Source: an uncultured delta proteobacterium
GTDB lineage: Bacteria; Desulfobacterota; Syntrophia; Syntrophales; Smithellaceae
Assembly (NCBI GenBank): GCA_903904655.1
Contig: CAIVDK010000419.1
Coordinates: forward strand, 1-43,755
Direction of reading: 5' to 3'
DNA length: 43,755 bases
In this document: piece after piece, positions 7,049-14,281 of the stretch
Position numbering within the stretch: position 1 is the stretch's first letter
Layout: each line of letters opens with the position of its first letter
Made by a program: the position numbers and the translations under genes
Notes under the pieces: generated by a model
Told to the model about the DNA's origin: nothing
The model's database searches: none
The model's input: only the letters and a program-made list of their open reading frames with translations

Positions 7049-7092
7049 GCATCCGTCAATAAGCAATTCCTTGAAGAGAAAGGTTGTTAGCG

Positions 7093-8301
7093 ATGCCGGT
7101 TTTTCTTTGGGCGGGAACAACGAAAAAGAACGAAGTCAAAAAAGGCGAGATAGAAGCCGCCGATGAGTTGGCTGCTCGTACGCTCTTGAGACGGCAGGGA
7201 TTTAAGTCCATCGATGTTCGAAAACAGCCGAAAGATCTGATGGAGTATCTTCCTTTCCTGGCAGGGGGTGTGAAAGAAAAAGACGTTGTGGTTTTCTGCC
7301 GGATTTTTTCTACGATGATTAATGCCGGCTTGCCGCTCATTCAATGCCTGGATCTGCTGGCCCAGCAGGAGAAAAATAAGGCTTTTGCCAAAATTATCCG
7401 GTCCGTTAAGGAAAATATTGAGGGCGGCACCAGCCTGACGGATGCACTGAAAAAATATCCGAAAGTATTTGATGAACTGTTTGTCAACTTAATTGCTGCC
7501 GGCGAAGCGGGCGGTATTTTGGACGTTGTTTTGGAACGTCTTTCCAATTATCTGGAAAAAGCGATGAAGTTGAAAAGAAAAGTCAAAAGCGCCATGACAT
7601 ACCCGATAGCGGTCCTTGTCATTTCTGTTGCAGTCGTTGCTTTGCTTCTGATCAAAGTTATTCCCGTATTTCAGAAGATGTTTGAAGGTATGGGTGGTGA
7701 GCTTCCCGGTCCGACGGCGATGATCGTGGCGATGAGCGAGTTTGCCCAGACTTATTGGTGGGTGATCTTTGCTGTGATCGTTGTGCTGGTGATTGCCTTT
7801 AATCGATTTTATAAAACAGAGAAAGGCCGCTGGATGATGGATTCGGCCCTGCTCAAAGCGCCGGTTTTCGGACCGGTGTTTAAAAAAGTGGCCGTAGCCA
7901 AGTTCTCACGGACGATGGCGACCATGATGAGCTCCGGCGTGCCGATTTTAGAAGGATTGAATATCGTCAGTAAAACATCGGGCAATGTGGTGGTTGAAAA
8001 TGCTTTAATGAAAACGCGTCAAAGTATCAGCGAAGGCCAGTCTATAGCCGAGCCGCTGGCTGAAACAGGTATTTTCCCGTCGATGGTTGTCCAGATGATT
8101 GCGGTAGGCGAAGCCACCGGTGCTCTGGACTCCATGCTCAATAAAATTGCTGATTTCTATGATGATGAAGTGGATACGGCAGTGGATGCTATGACATCCC
8201 TGTTGGAACCGGTGATGATGGTTTTCCTCGGAGGGATTGTCGGTGGGATGATTGTCGCCATGTATCTGCCGATCTTCAAGATGGCGTCGGTTGTGGGCTG
8301 A
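7093..8301 (+). CDS. pilC: Type IV pilus inner-membrane platform protein (GspF/PilC family)
   Basis: Two T2SSF repeats: STMINAGLPL, AGEAGGILD, KSAMTYP, VGEATGALD, LLEP, AMYLPIF. Confidence 0.92.
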   Translation: MPVFLWAGTTKKNEVKKGEIEAADELAARTLLRRQGFKSIDVRKQPKDLMEYLPFLAGGVKEKDVVVFCRIFSTMINAGLPLIQCLDLLAQQEKNKAFAKIIRSVKENIEGGTSLTDALKKYPKVFDELFVNLIAAGEAGGILDVVLERLSNYLEKAMKLKRKVKSAMTYPIAVLVISVAVVALLLIKVIPVFQKMFEGMGGELPGPTAMIVAMSEFAQTYWWVIFAVIVVLVIAFNRFYKTEKGRWMMDSALLKAPVFGPVFKKVAVAKFSRTMATMMSSGVPILEGLNIVSKTSGNVVVENALMKTRQSISEGQSIAEPLAETGIFPSMVVQMIAVGEATGALDSMLNKIADFYDDEVDTAVDAMTSLLEPVMMVFLGGIVGGMIVAMYLPIFKMASVVG

Positions 8302-8322: not shown

Positions 8323-8399
8323 TGGTCGGGATGGCGCGATTTGAACGCGCGACTCCTGCGTCCCGAACGCAGTGCCCTACCAAGCTGGGCCACATCCCG
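8323..8399 (-). tRNA. tRNA-Pro (anticodon CGG)
   Basis: Reverse complement CGGGATGTGGCCCAGCTTGGTAGGGCA-CTGCG-TTCGGGA-CGCAG-GAGTCGCGCGTTCAAATCGCGCCATCCCGACCA folds to a cloverleaf with encoded CCA. Confidence 0.96.
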
Positions 8400-8490: not shown

Positions 8491-8907
8491 GTGATTATTT
8501 ACGATGTGAAATGTGAGAACGGTCATAAGTTTGAAGGCTGGTTTAAAGATCGCCAGGCCTGGATCGAGCAAAACGCGCAGCGGTTGATCTGCTGTCCCGT
8601 TTGTAATAGTTCCAATGTGGAAATAGCGCCTTCCTCCATTACCATCATGGGGAAGGATGCAAAAACGGACGACAAGAATCATGAGAGAGATATTCCCCCG
8701 GGCAAGGCTCTTCAATGGTTGCAGCAGTTTATTGAAAACAACTTTGAAGATGTTGGAAATAAATTTGCCGAAGTGGCGCTGAAAATACACTATGGCGATG
8801 AAGAAAAACGAAACATTAAAGGGACGACGACGTCGCAGGAAGAAGCGAGCTTAAAAGAAGAAGGTATTTCGTTCATAAAAATTCCTCTGCCCAAAATGGA
8901 CAGCTGA
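8491..8907 (+). CDS. DUF1178 family protein (N-terminal Zn-ribbon-like)
   Basis: MIIYDVKCENGHKFEGWF, CPVC, FEDVGNKFAEVALKIHYG, RNIKG, LKEEGI. Confidence 0.88.
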   Translation: MIIYDVKCENGHKFEGWFKDRQAWIEQNAQRLICCPVCNSSNVEIAPSSITIMGKDAKTDDKNHERDIPPGKALQWLQQFIENNFEDVGNKFAEVALKIHYGDEEKRNIKGTTTSQEEASLKEEGISFIKIPLPKMDS

Positions 8908-8997
8908 TCCACCATTTATCCAGAATGATTTTTTGACCCCTTAAGAACCTTTTGTCGAAAAAAGACAGATCTATTATTGATAAACGGGCCGTATTTT

Positions 8998-11313
8998 ATG
9001 ATGAACGCTTATAAAAGTATTATTGATCGTATCGGCAACACGCCTCTTGTGGAAATAACGAGACTCAATCCGAATAAAAAGGTGAAAATTTTTGCCAAGC
9101 TCGAGTCTGCCAATCCGGGCGGTTCCATTAAAGACCGCACCGCCCTGGTTATGGTTGAAAATGCCGAAAAAAGGGGAGACTTAAACCACAATAAGATTAT
9201 TCTGGAGGCAACCAGCGGCAATACCGGCATAGGACTGGCCATGATCGCGGCGGCCAAAGGGTATAAGCTTTGTCTCACAATGTCCGAAGCGGCAAGCGAA
9301 GAACGCAAAAAAATCCTGCGGGCGATGGGCGCAGAACTGCATTTTACCCCGGCGGCGCTGGGAACCGACGGCGCCATTGAAGTTGCCTATCGGATGCTGC
9401 GGGAAAATCCCGACAAGTATTTCGGTACCGATCAATTTAACAACGAAGACAATATTGCCGCCCACTATTTTGGAACGGCCCAGGAAATCTGGGATCAAAC
9501 CGCAGGTCAAGTAACCATGGTCGTAACCACTCTCGGCACGACCGGCACTGCGATGGGTCTTTCCAAGAAACTCAAGGAGTTGAGCGGCCGGATTCGGATT
9601 ATCGGCGTCGAACCTTATTTGCAGCATAAGATTCAGGGGCTCAAAAATATGCGCGAGTCCTACCGCCCGGGGATCTTTGATAAGAAGCGTCTCGATGAAA
9701 AAGTGAACATTCTGGATGAAGACGCTTTTGAGATGTCCCGCAGGCTTGCCCGTGAAGAAGGCATCCTGGCGGGAATGAGTTCCGGGGCGGCCATGTTTGT
9801 GGCCGCCGAGAAGGCCTGCAAAATGGAAGAAGGTCTAATCGTGGTCATTTTTCCGGACAGCGGCGAGCGTTATTTAAGCACGGAGTTATTTGCGGTCAAA
9901 GAAGAATTGGCCACGGTAAATCTTTACAATATTTTGAAACGTCAGAAAACACTTTTCCGGCCGCTGAAATCTGAAGAAGTGTTAATGCGTACCTGCGGCC
10001 CGACCGTCCATGACGTGCCCCACCTGGGAAATTACCGGCGTCTGGTGGTGTCTGACTTGCTGTGTCGTTATCTGACGTTCAAAGGATATAAAGTCAAACA
10101 TGTTCTCGACATCGTTGATTTTACGGATAAGTCGATTAAGGGTTCGGAAAAGGCGGCGATGGATCTGTCGGATTATTCCAATAAATATTTGCAGATTTTT
10201 CTGGACGATGCGCGATATTTAAATATTCGTCCGGGCAATGTTTACGTGAAAGCTTCCGAAAATGTTGATGCCATGCTCAAGATTGTCGAGAAATTAGTTG
10301 ATAAAGGCTATGCATACGAGAAATTGCATTCTGTTTATTTCGATATTTCCAAACTGGCTGATTACGGTCTTCTCTCCAATGTCGATCTGGCAAAAACCAG
10401 ATTAGGCAAATCCATTGACCTCGACGACTATGAAAAAGACAGCCCGGCGGATTTTGCGCTCCTGAAAAGGGCCGGCCTGGGGGAGTTGAAAAGAGGAATT
10501 TATCATAAGACGAAGTGGGGCAATATTCGGCCGGGCTGGCATCTGGAATGCGCGGCCATTTCCCAAAAATATCTGGGAACGGCTTACGATATTCATATTA
10601 GCGGGGCTGATGAAACTTTTCCCCACTGCGAAAATATCGTCGCGATTAACAAGGCGTTTTCCGGCCATAGCGGTGCAAATTACTGGATCGGCGCTGAGCT
10701 GATCCTGGTCGATGGGCGGAAGATGTCACGCTCGCTGAATAATGCGGTAACGATCGCCAATCTGAAGCAAAATGGTTACAGCGGCAGGGATATCCGGTTT
10801 TTTCTGCTGGGGATGAATTACCGCAAACCGATCAGTTATTCTGAGAAGGCCTTGCAGATGGCGAGGAACACCATTAAAAAAATTGATACTTTTATTTACC
10901 GGCTTTACGCAATTGAGGATGATGCTCAAAATTTTCCTGATGTCGATCAACTGATTTACGATCTTCATCATGGTTTTGAGAAGGCCTTAGACGACGATAT
11001 AAATATATCCGGTGCTCTGGCGGCGTTTTTTGATTTTATTGGCAAGATCAACGCGCCTTTGACTGAGGGGAAAATCAGCAGGTCGGATACCCGGAAAATT
11101 GTCAAGGCGCTTGAAAAAATAAATGAAATAGTTGGCATAATGGATTTTGGACAACAAACACTCCATCTCGATATTACAGAACTTATTCAAAAAAGAGAAG
11201 CGGCCAGAAAAGCAGGCCTTTGGCAAGAAGCGGATGTGTTGAGAAATCAGTTGGCAGGGGCAGGCGTTGAGGTTTTGGATAGTCAGCAGGGGACAATCTG
11301 GCGTTTTAAATAG
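8998..11313 (+). CDS. Fusion of a CysM-type cysteine synthase (PLP) with a divergent cysteinyl-tRNA synthetase
   Basis: N-half: IGNTPL, NPGGSIKDR (PLP Lys codon 9130), EATSGNTGIG, GTTGT, FPDSGERYLS. C-half: CGPT, HLGN, DFALLK, RPGWHLEC, DIH, FPH, KMSRS, DD.NISGAL, REAARK...AD.LR...LD...GT.W. One open frame. Confidence 0.92.
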   Translation: MMNAYKSIIDRIGNTPLVEITRLNPNKKVKIFAKLESANPGGSIKDRTALVMVENAEKRGDLNHNKIILEATSGNTGIGLAMIAAAKGYKLCLTMSEAASEERKKILRAMGAELHFTPAALGTDGAIEVAYRMLRENPDKYFGTDQFNNEDNIAAHYFGTAQEIWDQTAGQVTMVVTTLGTTGTAMGLSKKLKELSGRIRIIGVEPYLQHKIQGLKNMRESYRPGIFDKKRLDEKVNILDEDAFEMSRRLAREEGILAGMSSGAAMFVAAEKACKMEEGLIVVIFPDSGERYLSTELFAVKEELATVNLYNILKRQKTLFRPLKSEEVLMRTCGPTVHDVPHLGNYRRLVVSDLLCRYLTFKGYKVKHVLDIVDFTDKSIKGSEKAAMDLSDYSNKYLQIFLDDARYLNIRPGNVYVKASENVDAMLKIVEKLVDKGYAYEKLHSVYFDISKLADYGLLSNVDLAKTRLGKSIDLDDYEKDSPADFALLKRAGLGELKRGIYHKTKWGNIRPGWHLECAAISQKYLGTAYDIHISGADETFPHCENIVAINKAFSGHSGANYWIGAELILVDGRKMSRSLNNAVTIANLKQNGYSGRDIRFFLLGMNYRKPISYSEKALQMARNTIKKIDTFIYRLYAIEDDAQNFPDVDQLIYDLHHGFEKALDDDINISGALAAFFDFIGKINAPLTEGKISRSDTRKIVKALEKINEIVGIMDFGQQTLHLDITELIQKREAARKAGLWQEADVLRNQLAGAGVEVLDSQQGTIWRFK

Positions 11314-12160: not shown

Positions 12161-12709
12161 ATGGAATTAACTGATCAAGAAAAAAAGACGCTTCTGGACA
12201 TAGCCAAAAGAGCGATTATTGCGAAAGCCGGCAATAGAGAATTACCTAAATTAACAATGGATTTACCGATACTTAAGGAAAAAAGAGGCGCTTTTGTCAC
12301 CTTAAAGAAACGGGGGCACCTGCGTGGTTGCATCGGCTATATCAAGGCGGTTAAACCACTGGGAGACACTGTGCAGGAAATGGCTGTTGCTGCAGCCTTT
12401 CATGATCCGCGTTTCCCGTCTCTCAAGGGCGAAGAAATCCGGGATTTGAGCTTTGAAATATCTGTTTTAAGCCCTTTGCGAAAGATTCAAACTATTGATG
12501 ACATTGAAGTGGGAAAACATGGCTTGTATATTGTTCGAGGTTATAATTCCGGTTTGCTCTTGCCGCAGGTGGCCACTGAATATGGCTGGGACAGGGAAAG
12601 TTTTCTAAAAGAGACCTGCTATAAAGCCGGTCTGCCGCCCAAGGCGTGGAAAGATAAAGAAACTGAAATATATATTTTCTCGGCAGATTATTTTAGCGAT
12701 AAGGATTAG
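12161..12709 (+). CDS. amrA: AmmeMemoRadiSam system protein A (AMMECR1 family)
   Basis: GAFVTL..RGHLRGCIG, AAFHDPRF, EISVLSP, GLLLPQVATEYGW, KAG. Confidence 0.92.
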   Translation: MELTDQEKKTLLDIAKRAIIAKAGNRELPKLTMDLPILKEKRGAFVTLKKRGHLRGCIGYIKAVKPLGDTVQEMAVAAAFHDPRFPSLKGEEIRDLSFEISVLSPLRKIQTIDDIEVGKHGLYIVRGYNSGLLLPQVATEYGWDRESFLKETCYKAGLPPKAWKDKETEIYIFSADYFSDKD

Positions 12710-12877: not shown

Positions 12878-12953
12878 GCTGGCGTAGCTCAATCGGTAGA
12901 GCAGCTGATTTGTAATCAGCAGGTTGCGGGTTCAAGTCCCATCGCCAGCTCCA
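12878..12953 (+). tRNA. tRNA-Thr (TGT)
   Basis: GCTGGCG...GCTGA-TTTGTAA-TCAGC...TTCAAGT...CGCCAGCTCCA. Confidence 0.96.
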
Positions 12954-12969
12954 GATGAGTAATATCACT

Positions 12970-13054
12970 GGAGGGGTTCCCGAGCGGCCAAAGGGAGCAG
13001 ACTGTAAATCTGCCGGCGGAGCCTACGGAGGTTCGAACCCTCCCCCCTCCACCA
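12970..13054 (+). tRNA. tRNA-Tyr (GTA)
   Basis: GGAGGGG...GCAGA-CTGTAAA-TCTGC, long variable arm, ...CCCCTCCACCA. Confidence 0.96.
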
Positions 13055-13072
13055 GTTTTTATGAATGGGTAA

Positions 13073-13148
13073 GCGGGAGTAGCTCAGGGGCTAGAGCGTC
13101 AGCCTTCCAAGCTGAGGGTCGCGGGTTCGAATCCCGTTTCCCGCTCCA
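13073..13148 (+). tRNA. tRNA-Gly (TCC)
   Basis: GCGGGAG...TCAGC-CTTCCAA-GCTGA...TTCGAAT...TTCCCGCTCCA. Confidence 0.96.
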
Positions 13149-13188
13149 GGTATTTTTTTTAATGCCAGTTTAAAAGTTTAAGAGTCGT

Positions 13189-13264
13189 GCCCACGTAGCT
13201 CAGTTGGTAGAGCACATCCTTGGTAAGGATGAGGTCACCAGTTCAATCCTGGTCGTGGGCTCCA
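13189..13264 (+). tRNA. tRNA-Thr (GGT)
   Basis: GCCCACG...CATCC-TTGGTAA-GGATG...CGTGGGCTCCA. Confidence 0.96.
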
Positions 13265-13277
13265 GTGAAGGAGAATT

Positions 13278-13427
13278 ATGCGAAATAATATTATTTTAGC
13301 TTGTACGGACTGTAAGCAGAGAAATTATACGACGACAAAAAATAAGCGTACCATGCAAAACCGCCTGGAAATGAAAAAATATTGCAAGTTTTGCCGTGGA
13401 CACAAACTGCACAGGGAAACGAAATAG
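13278..13427 (+). CDS. rpmG: 50S ribosomal protein L33 (Zn-binding type); not in the ORF track
   Basis: Manual translation: [49 protein letters not shown]; AAGGAG RBS. Confidence 0.95.
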
Positions 13428-13440
13428 TTAAAATTTGGAT

Positions 13441-13517
13441 AGGCCAGTAGCTCTAATGGATAGAGCGCCGGACTCCAAATCCGGATGCTGGGGGTTCAAG
13501 TCCCTCCTGGCCTGCCA
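13441..13517 (+). tRNA. tRNA-Trp (CCA)
   Basis: AGGCCAG...CCGGA-CTCCAAA-TCCGG...CTGGCCTGCCA; usual position before secE. Confidence 0.95.
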
Positions 13518-13750: not shown

Positions 13751-14281
13751 ATGGCTTTTAAATGGTACGTCGTACATACTTATTCGGGATTTGAGAATAA
13801 GGTAAAGATGAGCCTTCAGGAAAGAATTGAACTGGCCGGTGCTCAGGATTGTTTTTCCGATATTCTTATTCCGGAAGAAGATGTTGTGGAGTTGATTTCG
13901 GGAGAGAAGAAAACATCCAAACGCAAGTTTTTCCCAGGGTATATTCTGGTGCGTATGGAAATGAGCGATGAAAACTGGCATATCGTCAAAAACACACCGA
14001 AAGTAACCGGTTTTATCGGCAGCAAGGATAAGCCGTCACCGATTCCGGACAAAGACGTTGAGAATCTGAAGATAAGAATTGATGAAGGGACACTTAAGCC
14101 GAAACCCAAATTTAAGTTTGATGTCGGTGATCATGTCAAAATTATTGATGGCCCTTTCACCAATTTTGATGGGGTCATTGATGAAGTCCGACCCGAAAAA
14201 AGCAAGCTCAGGGTGATCGTCAGTATCTTCGGCCGTCCGACACCGGTGGAATTGGACTTCATTCAGGTCATGCAAGGATAA
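13751..14281 (+). CDS. nusG: Transcription factor NusG
   Basis: [25 protein letters not shown] domain [16 protein letters not shown]. Confidence 0.97.

Follow-up and report, generated by a model that had tools for sequence, protein, structure and literature searches.

A CysM-type cysteine synthase fused to a remodelled paralogue of cysteinyl-tRNA synthetase: a candidate tRNA-Cys- and thiol-binding module in Smithellaceae and other families

What is a second cysteinyl-tRNA synthetase (CysRS) body doing behind an enzyme that makes cysteine? The question is raised by a single plus-strand open reading frame (ORF; 8977-11313, 778 codons) on contig CAIVDK010000419.1 of an uncultured delta proteobacterium of the Smithellaceae (GenBank assembly GCA_903904655.1), of which the whole analysed stretch of 43,755 nucleotides is called the window here. 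An earlier note on this DNA had described bases 9985-10734, which lie inside this ORF, as a CysRS catalytic domain that is remodelled while the anticodon domain looks intact. The reading to which we tentatively lean is that this domain, as a module coupled to the fused synthase, would bind tRNA-Cys and a thiol and would not supply Cys-tRNA. The ORF opens at a TTG codon; ATG 8998 is probably the true start of the gene, because its close relatives have a length of 771 residues, as expected if translation begins at residue 8.

Pfam placed four domains in the fused protein, namely PALP (aa 17-294), the CysRS catalytic domain (327-630), DALR_2 (667-721) and CysS_C (730-776), and from these and the NCBIfam matches the protein is therefore assigned as a CysM-type cysteine synthase followed, after a short linker, by a full-length CysRS-like body. 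The synthase half scored 356.1 bits against the NCBIfam cysKM subfamily TIGR01136, over its cut-off of 344.15, and 348 bits against the cysM equivalog, under its cut-off of 394.2; its best solved relatives include E. coli and Salmonella CysM (245-248 bits). Like CysM, the O-acetylserine sulfhydrylase B (2BHS, 2V03, 2JC3), it carries all the motifs of the pyridoxal phosphate (PLP) site: SIKDR with the PLP lysine at aa 52, TSGNTG as substrate loop, GTTGT as phosphate loop, and GMSSGA; unlike CysM, it is extended by 470 CysRS-like residues. The CysRS-like half matched the solved CysRS 8qhp with 316 bits, and it has the same fold and domain order (Rossmann fold with connective peptide (CP) insertion, helical domain, anticodon-binding domain) as canonical CysRS (E. 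coli CysS 1LI5/1U0B, 8QHP). An AlphaFold2 model from a 109-row alignment of fused proteins (mean pLDDT 90.5, pTM 0.77; only residues 465-478, a surface loop in the CP insertion, below pLDDT 50) was compared with solved structures by Foldseek, which returned CysM 2bhs for the N-terminal half (TMt 0.95) and CysRS 8qhp and the tRNA complex 1u0b for the C-terminal half (TMt 0.92 and 0.83). In this model both halves fold as expected.

The remodelling was examined residue by residue, with E. coli numbering taken from a HMMER alignment of residues 312-778 of the fused protein to E. coli CysRS 1LI5 (Table 1). Every coordinate that the earlier note had given was reproduced by this alignment and the motif positions: the retention of C28, C209 (aa 525, nt 10549), H234 (aa 550, nt 10624), W205 and H224 was confirmed, as were the second lysine of KMSKS changed to Arg and the other listed motif changes, each at the level of the single residue. 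Its consensus NITDVDDK needs correction, the E. coli sequence being NITDIDDK, and the HIGH motif, normal in form, had gone unmentioned. Within DIHISGADETFPHCENI, H224 and the zinc ligand H234 are kept in the midst of G225I, G226S, L230E, H235C and E238I, so that DIHGGGxDL reads DIHISGADE and FPHHENE reads FPHCENI.

Table 1. Features of the fused gene in the window, with E. coli CysRS numbering for the synthetase-like half.
Feature	Coordinates	Strand	Evidence
Whole fused gene, CysM-type cysteine synthase + CysRS paralogue	8998..11313	+	Pfam, NCBIfam
CysM/CysK-type PLP domain, aa 17-305	9025..9891	+	PALP 4e-69; TIGR01136; 2bhs
CysRS-like catalytic core, Rossmann fold + CP insertion, aa 315-630	9919..10866	+	PF01406 7.9e-78
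Cys340 = C28, zinc ligand, kept	9994..9996	+	1LI5 alignment, motif position
HLGN = HIGH motif, normal form	10021..10032	+	Alignment
DIVDFTDK = NITDIDDK (N66D, T68V)	10108..10131	+	Alignment
DFALLK = DFxLWK, W to L (E. coli DFVLWK)	10450..10467	+	Alignment
GWHLEC: W205, H206, E208 and zinc ligand C209, all kept	10534..10551	+	Alignment
DIHISGADETFPHCENI = DIHGGGxDLxFPHHENE	10588..10638	+	Alignment
YWIGAE = YWxHxG, His to Gly and Gly to Glu (E. coli YWMHSG)	10681..10698	+	Alignment
KMSRS = KMSKS, second Lys to Arg	10720..10734	+	Alignment, motif position
Anticodon-binding part	10975..11304	+	Pfam, 1LI5 alignment

As canonical control we used 91 CysRS cluster representatives, consisting of the rows on the canonical side of the tree described below and the source genome's own cysS. 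T68, the cysteine-pocket residue of E. coli CysRS that binds the substrate alpha-amino group, was present in 91/91 of them and in none of 19 Smithellaceae fused genes; G226, H235 and E238 were likewise each present in 91/91, and the His of WxH and the Lys at position 4 of KMSKS each in 90/91. The Trp of DFxLWK was found in 89/91 canonical sequences against 0/115 fused genes (0/19 in Smithellaceae, 0/96 elsewhere), and its change to Leu is a marker of the whole fused clade. C28, C209, H234 and E238 are presumably the four protein zinc ligands of E. coli CysRS, and with Ile at 238 and Val at 68 the fused protein lacks the four-ligand zinc site and T68 of an ordinary CysRS. Judged from these alignments, the substitutions strike positions essentially never changed in ordinary CysRS, far beyond what chance would be expected to give.

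The anticodon-binding part is a different matter. The pattern R..AR...AD.LR...D...GT.W noted earlier at the C-terminus is retained, and R740, R744, D753, R756 and D768 align to E. coli R423, R427, D436, R439 and D451. Excerpts of PMC4536326 and PMC13449415 name R427, W432, D436 and R439 of E. coli CysRS as anticodon contacts, with R427 bonding O6 of G34. Three of these GCA-reading residues, R427, D436 and R439, are present in the fused protein as R744, D753 and R756.

The fused gene is not the only cysS of its genome (3.8 Mb, 473 contigs, 100% complete by marker genes). A canonical cysS with every canonical residue lies on contig C306 and scored 553.6 bits in the genome scan in which the fused copy scored 360.2; a canonical cysK (447.6 bits) and a cysE-like gene (166 bits) are also present. 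Judged from gene content, then, the CysRS-like domain is probably not the cell's supplier of Cys-tRNA for translation, a task that would fall to the separate canonical CysRS. The earlier note's verdict of 'not an ordinary CysRS' holds, given this second gene together with invariant positions that are changed, fixed and under purifying selection.

That fixation and selection became apparent in the two comparisons that the earlier note had proposed, of fused with stand-alone CysRS and of nonsynonymous with synonymous substitution rates (dN/dS), for which simple decay predicts values near 1. All 19 Smithellaceae genes have Val at position 68, a hydrophobic residue (Ile, Leu or Val) at position 238, and HLGN and KMSRS in unaltered form; at position 235, 18 of them have Cys and one has Gly. 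The rebuilt pocket is common to two sister families of the order, f3 and f6, and was found nowhere else in the sample. Nei-Gojobori dN/dS between Smithellaceae members, for pairs with dS 0.5-2, was 0.03-0.06 in the CysM half, 0.03-0.09 for most pairs in the CysRS catalytic region and 0.06-0.18 in the C-terminal part; the stretch 9985-10734 gave 0.04-0.08 for most pairs. Some pairs were saturated. By this measure the remodelled domain is under strong purifying selection and not in simple decay. Neither outcome that the earlier note had named as refuting it was thus obtained: the genome has another cysS, and the substitutions are conserved, with dN/dS far below 1. Genome tallies, counted by eye from the output tables, gave 84 of 101 Smithellaceae genomes with a near end-to-end match to both halves and no internal stops in the domain, ten with pieces of the gene (at contig ends or broken), and seven with only cysS- and cysK-level matches, of which four are 94-99% complete.

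Beyond the family, an even draw of 401 genomes of the phylum was searched for matches to both halves at E <= 1e-115. The fusion was found in 160/401 genomes and 98/254 genera, at 42-64% identity outside Smithellaceae. At least two TIGR00435 matches (two or three) were present in 157 of the 160, the best of them usually at 1e-150 to 1e-183, which points to a canonical cysS copy. The three fusion-bearing genomes with a single match are 62%, 95% and 97% complete; in one of them the fused copy has no KMSKS and therefore cannot be the sole CysRS. Named records of the fusion come from Desulforapulum autotrophicum, Desulfatibacillum, Desulfocapsa, Desulfopila, Desulfobulbaceae, Desulfovibrionaceae, Desulfocurvus and Caldimicrobium, and a few metagenome-assembled genomes (MAGs) that carry it are labelled Polyangiaceae, Pseudobdellovibrionaceae or Patescibacteria. 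The nearest database proteins are labelled 'cysteine--tRNA ligase [Smithellaceae bacterium]'; entries of this name with about 770 residues make up a large paralogous family of sulfate reducers, syntrophs and their kin that stands beside the real enzyme. A wider scan of genome contigs was dominated by ordinary CysK/CysM, with both halves matched in 19 of the 80 loci kept.

The 91 canonical rows and a clade of 29 others were separated, with an SH-aLRT of 99, in a tree of 120 CysRS domains; 18 of the 29 are visibly fused, and several others are fragments. One fused representative, P0124 (768 aa), groups with the canonical rows and has fully canonical CysRS motifs including the Trp and KMSKS, which points to a separate event in which CysM was joined to a true CysRS. 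Eight genomes of family f56 (G202, G235, G295, G353, G380, G428, G452 and G475) gave two to three cysS-family matches and no match to both halves at E <= 1e-115; the paralogue may exist there unfused or split.

What the family preserves was read from 115 fused genes of 47 families: the 19 of Smithellaceae and 96, about one per genus, of 46 other families, taken from the 401-genome list with the addition of four divergent fused genes. The PLP lysine is present in 115/115 (19/19 and 96/96). Each of the residues aligned to R423, R427, D436, R439 and D451 is present in 114/115 (19/19 and 95/96), which bears out the earlier view of an intact anticodon domain. The zinc triad C28, C209 and H234 is complete in 92/115 (19/19 and 73/96, the same counts as for C28 by itself). 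E238, T68 and H235, each at 0/19 in Smithellaceae, are kept in 62/96, 68/96 and 57/96 of the others, and Cys at 235, found in 18/19 Smithellaceae, recurs in 3/96, all of them in f3 and f6.

The ATP motifs follow another course. HxG[HN], found in 90/91 canonical CysRS, is present in 19/19 Smithellaceae and 8/96 other fused genes, KMS[KR]S in 19/19 and 19/96, and the two together in 19/19 and 6/96 (five of the 46 families), 25/115 in all. Ninety of the 115 genes thus lack at least one ATP motif and keep the domain, most members of the family being without the motifs needed for charging. On a FastTree tree of the 115 proteins the minimum number of state changes was 5 for both ATP motifs, 8 for KMS[KR]S, 13 for H37, 9 for E238, 5 for T68 and 2 for the zinc triad. 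Because the anticodon residues stand at 114/115 and the zinc triad at 92/115, as against 25/115 for both ATP motifs, the constraint common to the family is read as resting on predicted tRNA and thiol binding and not on adenylation.

Loss of HIGH and KMSKS motifs in so many relatives, and absence of the gene from seven of the 101 Smithellaceae genomes, might also be expected if a redundant, duplicated CysRS domain were merely drifting towards loss. We regard such a decaying remnant as barely credible. The dN/dS of the catalytic region equals that of the CysM half, the substitutions are fixed and not scattered, near-full-length copies persist in 84 of the 101 genomes, and in f15 and f23, two families with dead ATP motifs, the catalytic-fold region retains a median pairwise identity of 76% and 75%, against 80% in Smithellaceae.

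Since the synthase, the anticodon residues and, mostly, the zinc/thiol pocket are preserved and the ATP motifs are not, the simplest function that the family could have in common would be binding of tRNA-Cys, probably together with a thiol. Under this reading a second, paralogous CysRS body sits C-terminal to an intact CysM-type synthase, its unchanged anticodon-reading domain would bind tRNA-Cys, and its rebuilt zinc pocket would bind a thiol ligand. The module may in this way tie the synthase to the state of tRNA-Cys, of cysteine or of both, either by sensing them or by holding them beside the site where cysteine is made. Between two options of the earlier note, a sensor of tRNA-Cys or cysteine and an enzyme of altered specificity, the pattern across the family speaks for binding. 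Both ATP motifs are intact in Smithellaceae and in neighbouring families of the order, and ATP binding, perhaps with some adenylation, may therefore persist; given the strict retention of both motifs, catalysis in the Smithellaceae lineage is possible. A more far-reaching version, which we consider doubtful, has a class I synthetase body reused across the phylum as a control or delivery domain, by the logic of HisZ or GCN2, so that cysteine synthesis answers to the charging of tRNA-Cys, with the Syntrophales pocket rebuilt around a new Cys ligand to bind or activate a different thiol made next door.

Several observations weigh against a binding module. Strict retention of the ATP motifs in Smithellaceae is what would be expected if adenylation were still selected, and the non-catalytic reading for this family is in effect carried over from its relatives. 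The whole fused protein scored 358.4 bits against the cysS equivalog TIGR00435, narrowly over the cut-off of 340. Five other fused genes, in f9, f13, f25 and f92, look fully competent save for KMSRS, the W-to-L change and GG-to-TS, and because of these near-canonical genes the ancestral fusion may have been a working enzyme. The closest pair of Smithellaceae loci (L016/L017, dS about 0.1) gave a catalytic-region dN/dS of 0.12, the fused gene is dispensable in some Smithellaceae genomes, and the gene neighbourhoods offer no functional hint. The predicted interface between the CysM and CysRS halves, in itself a point in favour of the module, is also weak: modelled as separate chains the halves reached an ipSAE of 0.41, the best of three controls having 0.00, a result graded as weak support. 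The mark that it passed is passed by 116/157 solved complexes and 2/215 mismatched pairs, with only 18 of the 157 passing at 0.60 or under, where both passing mismatches also lie; the two-chain runs shared at least 96% of contacts, with partner pLDDT of at least 84.

Alternatively the domain may be a working second CysRS, in which case a bifunctional enzyme would pass new cysteine to tRNA-Cys, and the rebuilt pocket would still select cysteine with three zinc ligands from the protein, Cys551 perhaps standing in for Glu238. MshC, a paralogue of CysRS, adenylates cysteine with only three protein zinc ligands and without the Glu. Retention of HLGN and KMSRS in 19/19 Smithellaceae, of C28, C209, H234, W205 and H224, and of the anticodon residues would suit such an enzyme, as would the TIGR00435 score, the low dN/dS and the near-canonical genes just mentioned. 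However, T68, H235, E238, G226 and the second KMSKS lysine are all changed, a canonical cysS accompanies the fusion in 157/160 genomes, and the ATP motifs have been lost in 90 genes that keep the domain, so that charging is not what preserves the family. On balance we think a working second CysRS unlikely, though it deserves serious consideration.

The pocket might instead have acquired an altered specificity, activating another thiol, such as cysteine persulfide, selenocysteine, homocysteine or a thiol acid without an amino group, and loading it on tRNA-Cys or another acceptor. Intact ATP motifs beside a pocket that was rebuilt and then frozen (T68V 19/19, H235C 18/19, hydrophobic 238 19/19) would be in line with this, as would the confinement of H235C to the Syntrophales order in the sample. 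Yet the CysM active-site residues of the Smithellaceae lineage are the same as in the rest of the family at the invariant columns, with no sign of a different product, and the sequence names no candidate substrate. The tRNA complement of the source genome (47 tRNAs in a fragmented assembly) holds one ordinary tRNA-Cys (GCA, U73, G1:C72) and one tRNA-Sec, and neither SepRS nor SepCysS was found in that genome (best match 28 bits). Altered specificity accordingly appears rather improbable to us. Two related candidates were rejected: a dedicated second tRNA-Cys, since the genome has the single ordinary one and no tRNA-Cys gene was found in 21 fused-gene loci, and an analogue of SepCysS in which the PLP half converts Sep-tRNA-Cys, since SepRS and SepCysS are absent and the CysM half keeps its free-carboxylate loop.

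The MshC-like ligase that the earlier note had listed, an enzyme joining cysteine to a small-molecule amine without tRNA, fared worse. It would share with MshC, the cysteine:GlcN-Ins ligase of mycothiol synthesis (3C8Z, 8HFM), the origin as a CysRS paralogue beside a housekeeping CysRS, the zinc/thiolate pocket and the three zinc ligands without Glu, and MshC structures are among the solved relatives of the domain (114.8 bits). In the excerpts of PMC2922099, MshC lacks an anticodon-binding domain and acts without tRNA. The fused protein, unlike MshC, keeps DALR_2 and CysS_C with R744, D753 and R756, and it scored 174 bits against TIGR03447, where the cut-off is 485.1; no conserved biosynthetic neighbours were seen, and the tree groups the domain with CysRS-type sequences. 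A ligase of this kind is in our judgement very improbable.

A tRNA-Cys- and thiol-binding module would have a functional parallel in HisZ, a HisRS paralogue that serves as regulatory subunit of ATP phosphoribosyltransferase and is a separate class II subunit without an anticodon-binding domain. The likeness is one of working only: a paralogue of an aminoacyl-tRNA synthetase is attached, for ligand binding, to the enzyme that makes its own amino acid. Unlike HisZ, the domain in the fused protein is class I, covalently joined, with its anticodon domain kept and, in Smithellaceae, its ATP motifs as well. Of the traits that mark HisZ, biosynthetic association is thus present by fusion, and motif loss is present in 90/115 relatives and in none of the 19 Smithellaceae genes. 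From canonical CysRS, with which it shares HxGN, three of four zinc ligands, W205, H224, R427, D436 and R439, the domain differs in its place behind a cysteine synthase, its coexistence with a canonical copy, the loss of ATP motifs among its relatives, and T68V, G225I, G226S, H235C, E238I, the change of WxH to G, W to L and KMSRS.

Published excerpts offer three further comparisons. The second CysRS of Desulfobacterales, CysRS* (cysS*), also belongs to the former delta-proteobacteria and has changes in the CP region; as described in the excerpts of PMC5389517, it lies beside a selC* tRNA-Cys downstream of selB* and has no anticodon-binding domain. The fused protein, with its anticodon domain, its synthase and its DUF1178, Memo-like and AMMECR1 neighbours, is therefore distinct from cysS* as these excerpts present it. 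In the methanogen SepRS-SepCysS transsulfursome, according to excerpts of PMC8762117, cysteine is made on the tRNA, so that the likeness lies in the physical coupling of cysteine formation to tRNA-Cys; SepRS is class II and SepCysS a fold-type I PLP enzyme, both unrelated to the CysM and CysRS halves, and the CysM half, unlike the transsulfursome, keeps the loop that binds a free carboxylate. For the cysteine persulfide synthase activity of CARS (Akaike et al. 2017), the excerpts of PMC12926118 name the lysines of the KIIK and KMSK motifs; in the fused protein K385 and K388, which align to E. coli K73 and K76, and K582 are kept, and the second KMSK lysine is Arg585. A full-text literature search found no description of a CysM-CysRS fusion, and none occurs in the excerpts of PMC2922099, PMC8762117, PMC5389517 and PMC10655014, the papers likeliest to mention it.

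If the binding reading is correct, the tRNA-Cys-reading domain would be a new case of a synthetase body reused for metabolic sensing and a direct link of cysteine supply to translation in anaerobes. The Syntrophales form, with intact ATP motifs and a rebuilt zinc pocket, is a natural test case for surviving catalysis and for the way in which nature can re-engineer the zinc-thiolate selectivity of CysRS.

Short metatranscriptome contigs from four runs matched the fused gene: one of 268 nt was identical at 9484-9751, one of 151 nt had 1 difference at 10303-10453, and one of 383 nt with 13 differences at 10590-10972 probably came from a relative. As DNA can occur in metatranscriptome libraries, these are a weak hint of transcription at most. 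In the one-contig genome G116 the fused gene (C1:2736754-2739056, L208) falls into two parts (residues 12-600 and 597-776) that meet at a TGA, and a match to a separate cysS at G141:C2:129278-130030 carries an in-frame TGA; a frameshift, gene disruption or recoding of the codon could lie behind either.

Around the fused gene, Pfam searches of 47 flanking ORFs from 13 loci and four window ORFs gave no conserved partner genes, and the neighbours across loci are housekeeping or variable genes (tmk, LptD, NusG-like, MurJ, the type II secretion protein E and others). Upstream in the window, all on the plus strand, lie a type II secretion/type IV pilus platform protein (T2SSF, 7084-8301, 2.1e-67) and a DUF1178 zinc-ribbon protein (8491-8907, 1.3e-40). 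Downstream, also on the plus strand, are a Memo-like gene (11267/11324-12145, PF01875, 3.4e-66), whose longest ORF overlaps the end of the fused gene, and an AMMECR1 gene (12161-12709, PF01871, 1.6e-58), the two non-radical-SAM partners of the AmmeMemoRadiSam set; this pairing was not seen beside the fusion in other orders by Pfam of the flanking ORFs. Further on, a plus-strand tRNA cluster at 12878-13517 (Thr-TGT, Tyr-GTA, Gly-TCC, Thr-GGT, Trp-CCA) precedes a small secE-like ORF and an ORF of 176 aa (13751-14281) that by eye resembles nusG, an arrangement with which the ribosomal protein region usually opens.

Just upstream of the fused gene, a tRNA-Pro(CGG) lies at 8323-8399 on the minus strand of the window, and the same tRNA is found at 676-752 in L036, a sister-family locus, and at 5740-5814 in L109, from a MAG labelled Patescibacteria. 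This placement hints that the L109 contig was mis-binned or transferred from the same order. In three Desulfobacterales loci an ORF of 320-330 residues with no Pfam match comes next after the fused gene, in the same orientation (L050 8285-9256, L051 8272-9264, L060 7749-8711), and a thymidylate kinase gene precedes the fused gene in L047, L050 and L051.

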